Source: Escherichia coli
GTDB taxonomy: Bacteria; Pseudomonadota; Gammaproteobacteria; Enterobacterales; Enterobacteriaceae
Assembly (NCBI RefSeq): GCF_017348835.2
Contig: NZ_CP071375.1
Strand: one strand, 5' to 3'
DNA length: 64,000 bases
The position numbers are program-made. Shown piece by piece: positions 21,641-27,600 of the stretch (positions are counted from its first letter, which is position 1; each line of letters begins with the position of its first letter).

Positions 21641-24600
21641 TTAAAATCGCCAATCATCTCCAGCGGATAGCGTTGCCCGCTTTGATAACAACGGATACTT
21701 TCCGCCACCAGCGGCGAACGAAGATTTGACGCCTTTAAAATTTCTTCGGCGCTGACCCAACGACAGCAGTCGATATCGCTGTCATGAGGCTGGGTCGGGC
21801 ATATTTGCTCAAGCTCAATGGCAAAGAGGAAACGCAAAAACGGCGTTTTATCTGGCGCAATCCACTGATGCATACGAATAAAGTGTTGCGGCTGCGCGTT
21901 GATGCCGGTTTCTTCCCACAGTTCACGGGCGGCGGCTTCCACTAAGGTTTCATCGGCTTCCAGATGCCCGGCAGGTTGGTTCCATAACGCTTTACCATTA
22001 ATCGTCTCTTCAACGACTAAAAATTTGCCTTCTGCGTGCACCACGCAAGCAACGGTAACGTGCGGTTTAAACATTTTGCATCCTTAATCTGTCACTTCTC
22101 GCCATTCGCCATTGGCAAGATTATCCAAAGAGTAATCTCCCATCGCATAGCGAATCAGTCGCAGCGTGGGGAAACCAACATGGGCGGTCATGCGGCGCAC
22201 CTGGCGATTACGTCCTTCATATAAGGTGATCTTCAGCCAGCTGGTGGGAATACTTTTGCGTTCACGAATTGGTGGATTCCGCGGCCATAACCACGCGGGT
22301 TCGTTAACCAGCTCCGCGCCTGCGGGCAGGGTAGGGCCATCATTTAAGGTTACGCCATTGCGCAAGGCTTCAAGTGCGTCTTGTGTGGGAATACCTTCCA
22401 CCTGCACATAATAGATTTTTCCGGTGCGTTTACCCGGCTGGGTTAAACGCGCCTGCAACGCGCCGTTATTGGTCAGCACCAGCAACCCTTCGCTATCGCG
22501 GTCAAGGCGACCTGCTGCATAAACGCCCTGAACCGGGATGAATTCTTTTAATGTTTTGCGTCCGGCTTCATCGGTGAACTGCGGAAGAACATCGTAGGGT
22601 TTATTGAACAGGATCACACGCGTGGGCTGGTTTTCAGGTTTACGCCTGGTAGAACGTTGCGAGCTGAATCGCTTAACCTGGTGATTTCTAAAAGAAGTTT
22701 TTTGCATGGTATTTTCAGAGATTATGAATTGCCGCATTATAGCCTAATAACGCGCATCTTTCATGACGGCAAACAATAGGGTAGTATTGACAAGCCAATT
22801 ACAAATCATTAACAAAAAATTGCTCTAAAGCATCCGTATCGCAGGACGCAAACGCATATGCAACGTGGTGGCAGACGAGCAAACCAGTAGCGCTCGAAGG
22901 AGAGGTGAATGGAAAGTAAAGTAGTTGTTCCGGCACAAGGCAAGAAGATCACCCTGCAAAACGGCAAACTCAACGTTCCTGAAAATCCGATTATCCCTTA
23001 CATTGAAGGTGATGGAATCGGTGTAGATGTAACCCCAGCCATGCTGAAAGTGGTCGACGCAGCAGTCGAGAAAGCCTATAAAGGCGAGCGTAAAATCTCC
23101 TGGATGGAAATTTACACCGGTGAAAAATCCACACAGGTTTATGGTCAGGACGTCTGGCTGCCTGCTGAAACCCTTGATCTGATTCGTGAATATCGCGTTG
23201 CCATTAAAGGCCCGCTGACCACTCCGGTTGGTGGCGGTATTCGCTCTCTGAACGTTGCCCTGCGCCAGGAACTGGATCTCTACATCTGCCTGCGTCCGGT
23301 ACGTTACTATCAGGGCACTCCAAGCCCGGTTAAACACCCTGAACTGACCGATATGGTTATCTTCCGTGAAAACTCGGAAGACATATATGCGGGTATCGAA
23401 TGGAAAGCTGACTCTGCCGACGCCGAGAAAGTGATTAAATTCCTGCGTGAAGAGATGGGCGTGAAGAAAATTCGCTTCCCGGAACATTGCGGTATCGGTA
23501 TTAAGCCGTGTTCTGAAGAAGGCACCAAACGTCTGGTTCGTGCAGCGATCGAATACGCAATTGCCAACGATCGTGACTCTGTGACCCTGGTGCACAAAGG
23601 CAACATCATGAAGTTCACCGAAGGCGCGTTTAAAGACTGGGGCTACCAGCTGGCGCGTGAAGAATTTGGCGGTGAACTGATCGACGGCGGCCCGTGGCTG
23701 AAAGTTAAAAACCCGAACACCGGCAAAGAGATCGTCATTAAAGACGTGATTGCTGATGCATTCCTGCAACAGATCCTGCTGCGTCCGGCTGAATATGATG
23801 TTATCGCCTGTATGAACCTGAACGGTGACTACATTTCTGACGCCCTGGCAGCGCAGGTTGGCGGTATCGGTATCGCCCCTGGCGCAAACATCGGTGACGA
23901 ATGCGCCCTGTTTGAAGCTACCCACGGTACTGCGCCGAAATATGCCGGTCAGGACAAAGTTAACCCAGGCTCTATTATTCTCTCTGCTGAGATGATGTTA
24001 CGCCACATGGGTTGGACCGAAGCCGCAGACCTGATTGTTAAAGGTATGGAAGGCGCAATCAATGCGAAGACCGTAACCTATGACTTCGAACGTCTGATGG
24101 AAGGCGCTAAACTGCTGAAATGTTCAGAATTTGGTGATGCGATCATCAAGAACATGTAATCACTACATGTGTTAAATATTGAAACGGGCGTATAACACGC
24201 CCGTTGTTTTATTTATGTGGATATTATTAATAGCATATCGAGCATATTTATATAAAACCTATTACTTGAGCCCATATGGGCATATTTTTATAATACAACT
24301 CTTATGCAAACATTTATTTGTTATTTCGCTTTCTCCTGGAGGACACTCTTGACTGCTTTTGAGTAAACTCCATAAATTCTTGTTGAATGGCGCAATGTTA
24401 TAAATAGTAATAGGATATTCTTTATCCTTAAGGATAATACCAGGCTTAACAGGTGTAAATATACTTCCAGGAGGAAGAAATATAGTAGATTGATACCAGA
24501 TGATCATTTTCATATCACCCCATATGGCTGAAAAAGATATGCCGCATGTAGGTTGAATTACCGTGTCAATTACTACCCACTTCATTTGTTATGTCTTATC

Positions 24601-27600
24601 CCACGGTATTTAATATAGTTCATTTGGAAGTTCATTTCTTTATTTTGCATATGAGTATATTACCCCTTCAAAAAATAAATTAATTAAAACGATTGCTTAT
24701 ATAAAACAAAATTTAAAGCAAGGAATCTCAATGGATGTTAAACAAAATGAGATTTAGTGAAAACAATAAATTATTCACTTCGTTTTAGATTTGTTTAGCT
24801 ATAATGTTATACATTCAAATGACTGAACATCCTGTAATTAAAGCATCGCCTTTATGCTACTTTGTGCCAATTTGCTAAACATTATGGTTGCCTTTTTATA
24901 TAACGATAATAATGAATATAAGCATGACATGAGAATAAGGTTTCAATTTTTGAGTTATATAGGAAAGGTTTAACCTGTTCCTGGCTAAAATACATATAAC
25001 TGGATGATGACTAAACCAAAACACATGTGCGTTAAGTATTGAAACGGGCGTATGGCACGCCCGTTGGTTTTATAAATATGTTAACCGTTATAAAATAACG
25101 TATAGAAAGTCAAGTGATCACATTTCAAATATCAATTTGATAGTATTGGCCTGGTGATTATTTATGGGTAGCAATAAAAGGACAGTATTTATCATCCATA
25201 GGGATAGTCTCTGTACTATTATTCCCATTATGCTAATGTCTTACTGAATTATGAAGCATTTCTTAAGCATCCAACTTTAGCTAGATTAATGGTTTATTAT
25301 TTTCTACATCTTCAATATATAAAAGCGTATTATCAATGGCGTAGTAACTGCGTTTGTTATGATTAACATCAGTAACCCACCGGAAAACGCCCGCGTCTGC
25401 CAGTGTTGAACAGTATTCCCGAAATGTAGATTTTCCGCAAATATGAAGCAATGCGGCCTCTTTTATTTTAGCAGGGTTCTTGGTCGTACTAACTTTTAAC
25501 AGGTTCCTGGTTCCTCTTAATAACAAAACCGTGTCATCGTGAGTAATAATTCTGATGTTATCCGTAGCCAGATAATAAATGTAATGTGCAATACGGTGAT
25601 GTTTTAATTCTGAATAAAACCAGGAGAAGTTTTGCTCTTTTCTCACTTGCTCAAACATCTTTTGAAAAACAACGACCTGATCCATCAGGATAATAACCTC
25701 TTGTTAGTTGTGAGACTGCGTAGTGTGCACGATCGGTTTTACCACTTCAATCTGGTCTGTCCTTTGGCTGTGATATGTACAGAGTGTGATAGAGGGATTA
25801 CCTGAATTCTCCCGGTGAGCATTTTGCAACGGACCAGCTCCGGTACAAACGCTGTTGTGGGTTCAGATTATAACATTCTGTCTAAGGGGTGGGATAAAGG
25901 TGAAATTAGGGGGCATGAAAGATGACTTTATAACCTTGCTCACCCCAGTGTTGTAAAAGTTCGTTTTGCCTTCTCGTTGGTGCCATGCCTGTCCAGACAA
26001 TCAATGTTTGCGTCGGGAACAGTTCCGGGCGCGGCGATTCAATGGGATCAGCAAGAACAGAAATGTGCCATCCTGACAATGATAAACGCCATGCTTCCAG
26101 CCACAATCGAGCTCTCTCTTCAACATTCCACGCCATCAGAATGGCTTCTTTACCGGGCTTACGGCGCATTTCGAAAAGCGAGGCTGCTGCATATTCAATT
26201 AATGCGCCGTCAAACATACTGCTCATAATGCGGGAGGTGTTGTGATCAAGCACGAGACGCTGGCGAACAGGAAGGTAAACATGATTAATCAATTGATCTA
26301 CTGGGTACTCTCGACCCAGTGAAATAATTCTCGCGCGTAGTTTGGCAGGATTAGCCATACGAAGAATTGACATCATCTCTTCTTGCAGGCGGCTCCAGTC
26401 ATCTTCCGTATCCTGGCTGGTGGTTTCCAGTAATGCTTTAACTTTGCCTACAGGGACGCCATTACTTATCCAACGCTTGATCTCTTCGATACGTTGTATG
26501 TCTTCTTCATCAAAGAGTCGGTGTCCGCCTTCACTGCGCTGTGGTTTTAACAAACCGTAGCGGCGTTGCCAGGCCCGGAGAGTGACAGGATTAATCCCGC
26601 AACGTTCAGCAACATCACCAATGCTGTAATAAGCCACAATTCCTCCTTGCGGTCACAAATCTCCGTCGCCTGTACACGACCCAATAATACTTTGTACAAT
26701 ATACGCTAAAATTGTACAAAGTATAAATAAGATTTCAGCTAAATTGGATGAAACATTATTTTTAATGTGGATTAAATTAAAACATAACGTATTCATTTTC
26801 ACGATGATTTACTGAAATAATGTGCTGAAAATTATTTTTTCTCCGGCCACGCAACTGAAGGGATACCATTCAATTTAGCTTTAGCAAACAGATCCCCTTG
26901 AAACATCTCAATTCCTGCGGATTCAAGCCACATCCACTCTTCTGGTGTTGCCACGCCCATAGCACTGACTTGAATTTCAAGTGATGTACAGCATTTTATG
27001 ATCGCCTGAATAATTGCCTGCCGTGGTCCGCTTTTATGAACATTGGTAATCAATTCCTGACTGATTTTAATTCTGTCAGGCTGGAAGCGTGACAGGAGTA
27101 ACAAACCAGCAAAACCTGCGCCAAAATGATCAATTGCTACACTGATACCGGCAGCCTTTAGCGATTTAACCGCTTCGGCAAACTCATCAAACCGAGATAT
27201 GACTTCACTTTCAGTAAATTCAACGATGATTTGTTCAGGCACCAGAGCATTGGCCTTTATTTCATCAAGTAAAAAAGAGACTGCGTCAGGCTCGTTAACC
27301 AGGGTCATAGGTAATAGATTGATTGAAATCATTTTATCACCGAGCTCAAGTGCGTGTGCCATCGCGAATGCAAGCGCCTTACTTTTAAGATCCGCTGTGT
27401 AGATTTCCTCGTCTTTACGCTGCCCAACCGCTATAGCTGACGGGCTGTCTTCATTTTTTTGCACAATGGCTTCAAAAGCGATTATCCGCCGCGATAAGGG
27501 ATCGACAATAGGATGAAAGGCAAAGTGGTCGTTTATATTTGGTGAAAGAGCACAGGAATCAAGTTCTTTATCAGATCCGTCAGCGATAAAAAGCCAGGAG

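Follow-up and report, generated by a model that had tools for sequence, protein, structure and literature searches.

A second copy of the icd terminator beside iraM in Escherichia coli as the probable scar of an old integration

The icd end and the systems closest to it

In K-12, the icdC pseudogene is the duplication of the icd end at the attL and attR of phage 21/e14. Genomic islets are flanked by direct repeats of the 3′ ends of tRNAs or other genes, and islands accrete serially at one site. Deletion between short direct repeats proceeds by RecA-independent slippage or short-homology recombination. The anti-adaptor gene iraM has been placed "on the e14 prophage", with IraL in the IraM/IraL/RssC anti-adaptor family (Hryckowian et al. 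2014, PMC4045071).

The locus described here lies in the window, a 64-kb stretch of E. coli DNA in which iraM is present without e14; in K-12, iraM lies outside the right end of e14. Two copies of the icd terminator segment bracket iraM in the window. Copy 2 is best explained, with a probability of roughly 60%, as the stranded former 3′ end of icd with its terminator, the scar of DNA with the iraM operon that joined icd by a single, Campbell-type crossover, the shared homology being the icd 3′ end with its terminator. The literature placement needs a correction: iraM is independent of e14 and would be housed in its own, much older relic beside icd.

Like icdC, this arrangement sits at the same locus, directly duplicates the icd end with the same hairpin, has an identical right boundary (...GTTGTTTTAT), holds AT-rich foreign DNA between its copies, and has a displaced copy that appears non-functional and decaying. 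Unlike icdC, copy 2 in the window is without the 165-nt icd fragment or the crossover core, integrase, excisionase and arm sites are lacking, the inner edge is an IS3 remnant, and the copies lie 0.8 kb apart (1.3 kb in fuller haplotypes) rather than 15-50 kb. The imperfect direct repeat of tens of bases from the 3′ end of the target and the exact empty site resemble islets flanked by gene 3′ ends, and the stacked integrations, with e14 outside the iraM unit in K-12, resemble serially accreted islands. Unlike in those islets, the target is the terminator region of a protein-coding gene and the recombinase is gone. As in short-repeat deletion, an 860-bp segment with 48-51-nt repeat borders is missing exactly from some genomes, leaving one hybrid copy; unlike the usual case, perfect identity between copies 1 and 2 reaches 17 nt at most, so the event, known from sequence comparison, would be rare. 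Like IraL and the other phage- or island-borne members of its family, iraM carries PF11183 and is a single small cargo gene of a (formerly) mobile element, but its flanks, hairpins and upstream region are not in common with theirs. The known mechanisms are unchanged by this locus, and the stranded icd end would be a further example of a known phenomenon.

The terminator repeat and the phage attachment site

The features at the left side of the locus and the second terminator copy are as follows.

22909..24159, plus strand: icd (NADP isocitrate dehydrogenase), intact and free of prophage DNA (ORF list; RefSeq annotation of strain PE164, 100% identical)
23997..24017, plus strand: unoccupied attachment core for phage 21/e14-type integrases, within icd (lysogen comparison, phage 21 attP, pattern search)
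24165..24212, plus strand: copy 1, the icd terminator in use, hairpin 24183-24205 and T-run (repeat finding, terminator scan, folding)
25023..25073, plus strand: copy 2, a diverging and probably stranded copy of the icd terminator, hairpin 25043-25065 (repeat, folding, haplotype comparison)

icd continues straight into copy 1. The repeat finder returns one direct repeat (n=1), 24168-24210 against 25028-25070, with 43 nt, 88% identity and a spacing of 860; allowing one small indel extends it to 24165-24212 against 25023-25073 (48-51 nt), with the icd terminator hairpin inside. These coordinates reproduce the first-pass annotation of this stretch, which had reported a segment of about 50 bp holding the icd terminator directly after icd and again downstream, and the similarity survives formal alignment. 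A 30-nt degenerate pattern of the hairpin core has exactly 2 matches in the 64-kb window and 0 in 100 dinucleotide shuffles. The terminator consensus scan calls an intrinsic terminator on the plus strand at each copy (9-bp stem with 6 G-C pairs, 5-nt loop, T-run), and the predicted folding energies are -17.8 kcal/mol (copy 1) and -16.8 kcal/mol (copy 2); on the minus strand the T-run that the scan looks for is missing. Copy 2 is, as had been noted, a plus-orientation terminator without a plus-strand gene upstream; on the minus strand, the ymgL-like ORF and ycgX stop 53 nt short of its hairpin.

Resemblance by chance, or membership in a dispersed extragenic repeat family unrelated to icd, is counted as refuted. 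Terminator hairpins are common and their shapes can converge; beyond this, no support for such an origin was found. Against it stand the shuffles (0/100 against 2 observed), BLAST E-values of ~1e-10 even in small searches, an Rfam search of the segment that gave no family at threshold, and a low, icd-linked copy number. Hairpin places number 2 per E. coli genome at the median and 6 at the maximum (5,417 genomes), and all those in the sample examined are linked to icd or icd prophages, which is not the distribution of a widespread extragenic repeat. Across ~100,000 species genomes, a 19-base hairpin pattern finds only the icd terminator of E. whittamii and one chance match. Copies 1 and 2 are genuinely paralogous, each representing the 3′ end of icd with its terminator.

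Several other repeat classes were considered. Dispersed repeats of the REP/BIME and ERIC/IRU type, which occur in tens to hundreds of copies, are ruled out by the 2 copies in the window and the median of 2 per genome. An IS or transposon with a 2-15 bp target duplication is ruled out by a duplication of 48-66 nt and by the absence of a transposase between the copies; the IS3 remnant described below is a truncated passenger. An integron cassette (attC) is not supported on reading the sequence: GTTAAAT occurs at 24171-24177, and the inverse core is absent at the other end. The sole inverted repeat near the segment ends is a 14-nt, 86% AT-rich match, and the ORF list holds no integrase ORF in the region around the repeats.

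The description of icd as an integration hotspot is borne out by the structure of attP, attL and attR, which mark it as the attachment site of phage 21/e14-type elements. Phage 21 and its relatives carry, in order, the core, 165 nt of icd, the same hairpin ending ...GTTGTTTTAT, arm sites and int, and their homology stops at the same base as the junction of copy 1 with the iraM segment. Lysogens of this type hold two hairpin copies because the phages carry the last 165 nt of icd plus the hairpin, and every such integration duplicates the icd 3′ end and terminator and strands the old copy. The repeat flanking iraM is not the e14 att core. The displaced icd fragment in lysogens begins at window 23995-24001, phage 21 attP homology begins at GCTGCGCCATATGGG, and a search with the crossover-core pattern finds one site, 23997-24017, inside icd and ~150 nt upstream of copy 1. 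Integrase-region DNA of e14 or phage 21 was sought across the 64-kb window and none was found, and e14 is, as the first-pass annotation stated, wholly absent from it. The suggestion that iraM arrived or was rearranged by site-specific recombination at icd stands as to the hotspot, the duplicated icd end and the prophage-cargo relatives of the gene, and fails as to the att core.

The iraM segment, the IS3 remnant and the apparent decay of copy 2

The segment between the copies and its right flank contain the following features.

24262..24585, minus strand: iraM (RssB anti-adaptor, PF11183) (ORF list, PF11183, PE164 annotation)
24590..24614, no strand assigned: scar of a missing YmgB/AriR-family gene (~431 nt) found in other haplotypes (L057/L047 comparison)
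24614..24975, minus strand: upstream/promoter region common to all versions of the iraM unit, with a 14-codon ymgK-like ORF at 24838-24882 (alignment; PE164 annotation)
24963..25025, plus strand: left-end remnant of an IS3-family insertion sequence, cut off against copy 2 (collinear with the IS3 left end)
25118..25228, minus strand: ymgL-like small ORF, stop codon 53 nt from the copy 2 hairpin (PE164 annotation; named ymgL in other genomes)
25281..25685, minus strand: ycgX (DUF1398), of a family with prophage paralogues such as ybcV (ORF list, PE164 annotation, family comparison)

The G+C content between the copies is 25-33%, against 50-54% in icd, and the AT-rich bracketed segment is as the earlier annotation described it, with iraM at 24262-24585 as its only cargo, plus the IS3 remnant. 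Integrase, excisionase and arm-type sites were sought between the copies and none was found beside iraM; a transposase is also absent. The iraM product (~107-aa family) is 92-95% identical to clusters named IraM, all with PF11183, and by sequence belongs to the IraM/IraL/RssC anti-adaptor family as a putative binder of RssB. Its relatives (55-73% identity) occur as cargo on lambdoid/Stx prophages and on IS-flanked islands; in lambdoid prophages they lie between Q/stx and the lysis genes. These phage and island homologues share only the iraM coding sequence (69-74% nucleotide identity), not the flanks, hairpins or upstream region. iraM is best read as surviving cargo whose relatives are prophage morons.

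The iraM unit keeps the same internal order in three lineages that differ by ~20% in nucleotide sequence, and its upstream region is 72-77% identical to those of L047 and L061. L057 has 431 extra nt between window positions 24614 and 24615, and L047 has a YmgB/AriR-family gene at the same place. A possible ancestral operon would have combined iraM with a YmgB/AriR-like gene, in linkage with the bluR-bluF light/biofilm module, and may hint at how iraM entered stress regulation.

The IS3 remnant is collinear with the IS3 left end at a score of 22.5, against a shuffle maximum of 17.5. It is ~63 nt long in the window, ~235 nt in L047 and ~131 nt in L061, and these three truncation points in three lineages mark independent deletions from a longer ancestor. 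Since the remnant adjoins copy 2, IS-associated deletions shaped the present edges.

In the window, the sequence before copy 2 resembles the icd coding region no more closely than chance allows (384-421 of 500 shuffles are equal or better), and the crossover core GCTGCGCCAYATGGG is absent there. The icd terminator itself is present at copy 2 in icd orientation, with homology ending at the T-run. Icd codons before copy 2 are directly observed in one lineage: in strain 100117 (17 genomes in all), the counterpart of copy 2 matches window 24145-24210 at 80% over 66 nt and covers ATCAAGAATATGT(T)AA, the last codons of icd. Even in this best-preserved lineage, at most 16 nt of icd coding sequence stand ahead of copy 2.

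The copy 1 hairpin is invariant among all copies matching the search pattern, chromosomal or phage-borne, and the copy 2 stem is mismatched in the K-12, L024 and L047 types. The K-12 type is the commonest sampled haplotype (10 of 18 listed copy 2 sequences); two non-compensating changes at one base pair leave it with an A-G mismatch, and it folds at -10.2 kcal/mol (z = -0.2), against -17.8 for copy 1. Stem-breaking changes beside an invariant copy 1 are expected of a relic, and copy 2 gives the impression of a decaying remnant and not of an orphan terminator that still functions. The diverged copy is copy 2, which fits relaxed constraint or an element-borne left part, so that either copy may be the element's.

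Copy 2 may still have been kept for a function, although we consider this doubtful. As terminator or insulator, it would separate the minus-strand ymgL-ycgX transcript from the promoter region of iraM, and the single hairpin of iraM-less genomes would be a shared terminator for the convergent icd and ymgL-ycgX. The hairpin follows the ymgL-like stop codon closely (~37 nt past it in iraM-less genomes), the minus-strand RNA of copy 2 folds at -15.3 kcal/mol with z = -4.0, and the stem is intact in the window-type haplotype. However, the minus-strand hairpin is followed by UUUCAAUACUU, where the consensus scan calls no terminator, and the stem is broken in the three mismatched types and never in copy 1. 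A retained function concerns maintenance rather than origin and can coexist with the scar of an integration.

Presence, probable loss and origin of the iraM segment

In a survey of 5,426 complete E. coli genomes, about 3,844 have the order icd-copy1-iraM-copy2-ymgL-ycgX and about 1,037, including 536, UTI89, Nissle and ST131, have one hairpin and no iraM. The iraM-less site (icd, one hairpin, ymgL) is the left part and loop of copy 1 fused to the right flank of copy 2. The comparison of the icd-ycgX interval proposed in the first-pass annotation shows the iraM segment to be a presence/absence polymorphism bounded exactly by the repeats. In the right-flank tree, iraM-less genomes form a single clade 3-4% from the window, consistent with a single event, and a divergent iraM-bearing haplotype lies at 19%. 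The iraM-less state is most likely derived, by deletion between the repeats, and the two copies probably let one major E. coli lineage lose iraM cleanly. The exact 860-bp loss is a simple structural reason why 536, UTI89, Nissle and ST131 are without iraM and have only phage-borne relatives. On this comparative evidence, a recent arrival of iraM is not the best reading, as the iraM-bearing arrangement is old. Site-specific elements can strike one site twice, which weakens the parsimony argument on indel direction.

If the iraM-less site were instead the ancestral empty site, a small circular DNA carrying iraM and a diverged icd terminator would have recombined into the resident terminator. The exchange would have fallen within the hairpin's right half, either by homologous recombination or through a hairpin-recognising recombinase; we regard such a direct insertion as unlikely. 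Copy 2 differs from the iraM-less single copy only left of the loop and is identical to the empty site from CACGCCCGTTG rightwards, as attL/attR hybrids would be; the empty site is exact, and the left end of the unit is nearly constant (window 24224-24232) in three different contexts. Deletion between the repeats, however, gives the same pattern. The 100117-lineage counterpart of copy 2 reaches the icd coding region, and therefore the original duplication exceeded the terminator. In the window, copy 2 starts on its left at a junction made by IS3 truncation and not at an element end. In addition, the iraM arrangement is common to haplotypes 19% apart, the flank of iraM-less genomes departs from the mainstream by only 3-4%, the unit has no recombinase gene, and the copy-2-type hairpin is on no phage or viral contig outside an iraM context.

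The unit begins within 10 nt of the same point after the icd terminator, the trkG terminator and an IS3 fragment, and directly follows a terminator hairpin T-run in 2 of these 3 unrelated contexts. It is very improbable that the unit is a discrete, hairpin-targeted single-operon cassette, put at terminator hairpins by an unlinked recombinase that duplicates them; if true, the unit would represent a novel type of mobile cassette that seeks out terminators, and not a prophage scar.

In another Escherichia species (88.8% core identity), the iraM unit is joined to bluR through a deletion that starts inside an IS; the unit there lies at a different locus (cybB-ydcI), and the hairpin is absent. The presence of the unit and the IS deletion in that species makes the iraM arrangement older than E. 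coli. The cybB-ydcI location demands an extra relocation step under an integration at icd.

In L061 and L062 the hairpin, ymgL and ycgX are all missing, and the unit borders immediately on the region upstream of bluR. This favours a reading in which the unit was originally contiguous with bluR, as in the other species, and copy 2, ymgL and ycgX arrived later as one block, the degraded left end of an icd prophage placed between the two. The prophage paralogues of ycgX, among them ybcV in the icd prophage of O157, also favour it, as does the resemblance of an icd tail and terminator followed by minus-strand genes to a prophage left end. We nevertheless hold this origin improbable. The IS3 remnant of L047 is continuous across the L061 breakpoint, with both halves matching the IS significantly, and L061 is therefore a deletion derivative and not a pre-insertion state. 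The position at which L061 becomes homologous to E. coli again, 73 nt upstream of ycgX, is arbitrary, and no simple mechanism puts the left end of a prophage on the right-hand side of the unit.

For integration at icd with a stranded former end, we infer as follows in what order events took place, what the original element was and which way the indel went. The incoming element would have brought in or restored a functional end for icd (copy 1) and shoved the previous end downstream as copy 2, initially, on this model, with the full displaced 165-nt icd fragment. An IS3-family element would then have inserted to the right of the iraM unit, and deletions from inside it would have eliminated whatever else the element contained, along with most of the displaced fragment; one such junction, at a CAT microhomology, may form the left border of the window's copy 2. 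This history has to accommodate a unit with no integrase, arm sites or phage core beside iraM and a window copy 2 with no icd coding similarity before it. The surviving cargo would be iraM and its upstream region, plus the YmgB/AriR-like gene in some haplotypes. Later recombination between the 48-51-nt direct repeats would have given the precise loss of iraM in the 536/UTI89/Nissle/ST131 lineage, and later integrations would have stranded an icd fragment with copy 1, by e14 in K-12 and by phage-21-like prophages in O157 and UTI89. The icd end would then be a layered record, with an e14 or phage-21 layer outside and an iraM layer inside, useful for dating prophage traffic.

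Anatomy of the icd–iraM–ycgX interval

The icd–iraM locus is best read as a layered scar at an attachment site well known from prophages. The e14/phage-21 layer, where present, is the outermost; of an inner, older layer at icd, the iraM operon would be the sole survivor, and the second copy of the icd terminator segment (copy 2) most likely marks the former icd end. IS3-associated deletions and, probably, a later repeat-mediated loss shaped the present arrangement. The locus is a fresh example of an already known structure type and is modest in interest. Its features in the window are:

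24159: end of icd
24165–24212 (48 nt): copy 1, which holds the icd terminator; hairpin at 24183–24205 followed by a T-run
24262–24585, minus strand: iraM
25023–25073 (51 nt): copy 2, in the same orientation as copy 1; hairpin at 25043–25065

The repeat finder identifies copies 1 and 2 as a direct repeat with 88% identity across 43 nt and a spacing of 860. A 30-nt degenerate pattern of the repeat core occurs twice in the 64 kb, compared with 0 occurrences in 100 shuffles. Plus-strand intrinsic terminators are predicted for both copies, with predicted folding energies of -17.8 kcal/mol (copy 1) and -16.8 kcal/mol (copy 2). The DNA separating them is 25–33% G+C and also holds the iraM upstream region and a 14-codon ymgK-like ORF; to the right of copy 2, the minus strand carries a ymgL-like ORF, ycgX, and bluR. 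No e14 or phage-21 DNA was detected anywhere in the window, and PE164 is 100% identical to the window over the stretch tested. The observation of the first-pass annotation, that two icd terminator copies bracket iraM with no e14 present, is thus borne out by the repeat finder, pattern count, terminator calls, and phage-DNA search. In the window, MAFFT alone hinted that the repeat reaches further into the coding part of icd; local alignment against shuffles assigned this similarity to chance.

Two smaller motifs occur in this region. A perfect 14-nt inverted repeat (ATACTTTGTACAAT / ATTGTACAAAGTAT, 10-nt spacer) lies at 26687–26724, in the gap separating the stop codon of bluF from the start of bluR, and is kept in every strain compared. 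The 14-nt motif GCATATTTATATAA is found around the iraM stop codon, at 24242–24255 in the 3′ flank and at 24280–24293 just within the coding end, with a third occurrence (86% match) near copy 2 at 24890–24903. The motif may mark sites bound by a protein, or it may be coincidental, given how AT-rich the DNA is.

Across 5,417 complete E. coli genomes, the repeat segment occupies a median of 2 and a maximum of 6 places per genome. At every locus examined, these are the icd end, a prophage-displaced icd end, a phage-borne copy, or copy 2. With so few places, those examined all linked to icd or its prophages, the possibility raised in the first-pass annotation that copy 2 is a widespread extragenic repeat unrelated to icd did not hold. 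No Rfam family matches the repeat segment at threshold, and a literature search found no paper that describes it. A scan of one genome per species with the 19-base hairpin pattern returned only the E. whittamii icd terminator and one chance match, and as it missed E. coli itself, although all E. coli examined carry the pattern, the missing of other Escherichia there does not equate to absence of the hairpin. Away from iraM, neither IMG/VR nor GenBank phages yielded a hairpin of the copy 2 type. Integron-cassette and transposon readings are rejected on anatomy. Plasmid matches are chromosome fragments or entire chromosomes filed as plasmids, plus iraM homologues.

Phage attachment within icd

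In its reference list, PMC12803456 credits the attachment of e14 and phage 21 in icd to Hill et al. 1989 and Wang et al. 1997. The displaced icd fragment of lysogens starts at window 23995–24001, and phage 21 attP homology starts at GCTGCGCCATATGGG. This core occurs once in the window, at 23997–24017 inside icd, about 150 nt upstream of the repeat and with no counterpart in copy 1 or copy 2; therefore, the repeat is not the att core, and the suggested alignment of the repeat copies with the e14 core yields no match. Of the proposal that iraM reflects site-specific recombination at the icd hot spot, the involvement of recombination there stands, whereas the repeat as its crossover core does not.

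In phage 21 and its relatives, the core is followed by 165 nt from the 3′ terminus of icd, then the same hairpin as far as ...GTTGTTTTAT, then three arm-type sites and int. Each integration therefore leaves the icd end and its terminator in two direct copies, of which the older becomes stranded. Phage homology stops at the very base where copy 1 passes into the iraM flank. The e14 version of the icd end and hairpin is more diverged than that of phage 21. In 5/5 pairwise comparisons, sequence variability is 1.5- to 7-fold higher in the 163 nt of icd beyond the core than in the first 1,088 nt, in line with conversion of the chromosomal copy by phage-borne DNA. Since none of the comparisons departs from this, pre- versus post-core divergence does not discriminate as a test of an element-derived copy.

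One strain (L035, ~4456–4509) carries phage-21-type variants TTACCACATGTATTAAATATTAT in copy 1 ahead of iraM, which indicates conversion of its chromosomal copy 1 by a phage-borne copy. In strain 100117, which represents a divergent haplotype, e14-like arm sequences GTTAGCATGCTAACGGTTATCAAAATTTTATCAAAA (85% to K-12 e14 over 80 nt; L048 5380–5460, minus strand) follow the icd terminator and precede a hypothetical gene, a transposase remnant, and trkG. A weaker e14-like arm trace (72% over 68 nt) is present in E. whittamii (L008 8660–8700), with no nearby iraM.

Origin and present state of copy 2

Strain 100117 and 16 other genomes carry a copy 2 counterpart with 80% identity over 66 nt to window 24145–24210. 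The match covers ATCAAGAATATGT(T)AA, which spells the four final icd codons and the stop codon. The G of TTAAGTA is common to this counterpart and all other copy 2 sequences, and the counterpart is therefore the same paralogue as copy 2. Judged by sequence, copy 2 is derived from an icd end. Ahead of the icd tail in the divergent haplotype (L047), the adjoining 290 nt show icd similarity at chance level by local alignment against shuffles.

Directly left of the counterpart in strain 100117 lies an IS3-family left end, with its terminal repeat and the first part of orfA. Remnants of this end are collinear with the IS in 3/3 lineages, and every score is above all shuffles.

IS3 remnants in three lineages
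Strain 100117 (L047): about 235 nt
Second Escherichia species (L061): about 131 nt
Window: 24963–25025, about 63 nt

The three distinct truncation points imply three independent rightward deletions from within the IS, which in turn imply an ancestor with a longer stretch ahead of copy 2. The window junction reads ...CCAAAACACAT followed directly by GTGCGTTAAG..., with CAT common to both sides; the left edge of the repeat in the window is therefore a deletion scar and not an element end.

Among the sampled pattern-matching copies, chromosomal or phage-borne, the copy 1 hairpin does not vary. K-12-type copy 2 has an A-G mismatch produced by two non-compensating changes at one base pair and folds at -10.2 kcal/mol, not better than shuffles, and two further copy 2 types (L024 and L047) have single stem mismatches each. 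A minus-strand terminator was not called at copy 2, where the ymgL–ycgX end is 53 nt away and a proper T-run after the hairpin is lacking. Taken together, these features suggest that copy 2 behaves as a decaying relic, and it may retain a weak insulating role.

The iraM unit across Escherichia

Four configurations of the interval occur in E. coli.

Configurations of the icd–ycgX interval
a: icd or displaced icd fragment, copy 1, iraM, copy 2, ymgL, ycgX; 3,844/5,426 genomes
b: icd, single hairpin, ymgL, ycgX, without iraM; 1,037 genomes including 536, UTI89, Nissle 1917, and ST131
c: prophage in icd with its right end cut by IS1203; right attachment site, iraM, ycgX, and entire bluRF module deleted; typical O157:H7
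d: divergent haplotype (strain 100117 type); 17 genomes

In most configuration a genomes, icd is free of prophage; a minority, K-12 (e14) among them, carry one left of the displaced fragment. The single copy in b has the left part and loop of copy 1 and the right flank of copy 2; thus, a differs from b by exactly one repeat unit plus the intervening DNA. In typical O157:H7 (L005, L051; NC_017906.1, 1613779–1675000), the loss also spans bluR, bluF, and ycgZ-ymgA-ariR-ymgC and reaches a truncated autotransporter gene beside minE, and the sole iraM-like gene left is a phage-borne homologue (71%). The atypical O157:H7 strain PV15-279 retains the iraM–bluRF region. Some genomes, iraM-bearing and iraM-less alike, have one or two IS200C insertions within the icd–ycgX interval.

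Fuller versions of the iraM unit contain a YmgB/AriR-family gene between iraM and its upstream region (L047 3560–3820; L057 7001–7255). Its carriers are the divergent haplotype, the other Escherichia species, and one otherwise mainstream E. coli (L057), which has 431 additional nt at window 24614/24615. A deletion of ~431 nt (scar 24590–24614) removed this gene from the window and K-12. It and iraM may originally have formed a two-gene operon, with iraM in second position.

The unit is also present in assemblies ERR3970404 and ERR3970605, in which hglS–opgD is 88.8% identical to E. coli, which points to another Escherichia species. There, the unit sits between ydcI and bluR, without icd, the hairpin, ymgL, or ycgX. 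It holds iraM (79.5% nucleotide identity) and the AriR-like gene together with the upstream region (76.6%) and the left end of the IS3. Homology with E. coli restarts 73 nt upstream of ycgX, at window 25758, which is an arbitrary point. In the 100117 haplotype, the IS remnant runs unbroken across that breakpoint, and the second-species state is therefore a deletion derivative. In these assemblies (L061/L062), the entire bluF-bluR-ycgZ-ymgB module lies with the iraM unit between cybB and ydcI, with an IS3 orfA fragment at the iraM end; it takes the place of the genes present there in K-12. The module looks like a relocatable island.

The divergent haplotype carries iraM at the same position and differs from the window by 17–36% from copy 2 to mid-ycgX and by 1–5% further right. 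In a tree of the ymgL–ycgX flank, iraM-less genomes form one clade, 3–4% from the window and sister to all mainstream iraM-bearing types, and the iraM-bearing divergent haplotype is 19% away. This tree and the second species place the iraM-bearing arrangement before the split that yielded the iraM-less lineage, which argues against a recent arrival of iraM. With a probability of roughly 70%, the iraM-bearing state is the older and the iraM-less state is a single precise deletion between the repeats. Two caveats bear on this direction: the comparison covers E. coli and one other Escherichia species, and a site-specific element could have struck the same icd site twice. BluR was uninformative as a route to outgroups: beyond E. 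coli, the nearest cluster is that of Citrobacter freundii (84%), in which bluRF is not beside icd.

Hryckowian et al. (PMC4045071) reported IraL as encoded by a genomic island and CFT073 as lacking iraM, and placed iraM “on the e14 prophage”. The latter placement is inaccurate because the window has iraM without e14 and K-12 iraM lies beyond the right end of e14. Elsewhere, IraM relatives with 55–73% identity are cargo genes of lambdoid prophages, between Q or stx2 and nanS-p/holin (45 Stx2 phage records included), and of IS-flanked islands. The phage-borne homologues have no hairpin or flank homology and share the coding sequence only. In Stx2/Stx2c phages (L012–L014, ~3173–3541; 45 GenBank phage records), the homologue directly adjoins the Shiga toxin 2 genes, on the opposite strand between stx2B and nanS-p. 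It shows ~70% amino-acid and 71–74% nucleotide identity, confined to the coding sequence, and is unannotated in most records.
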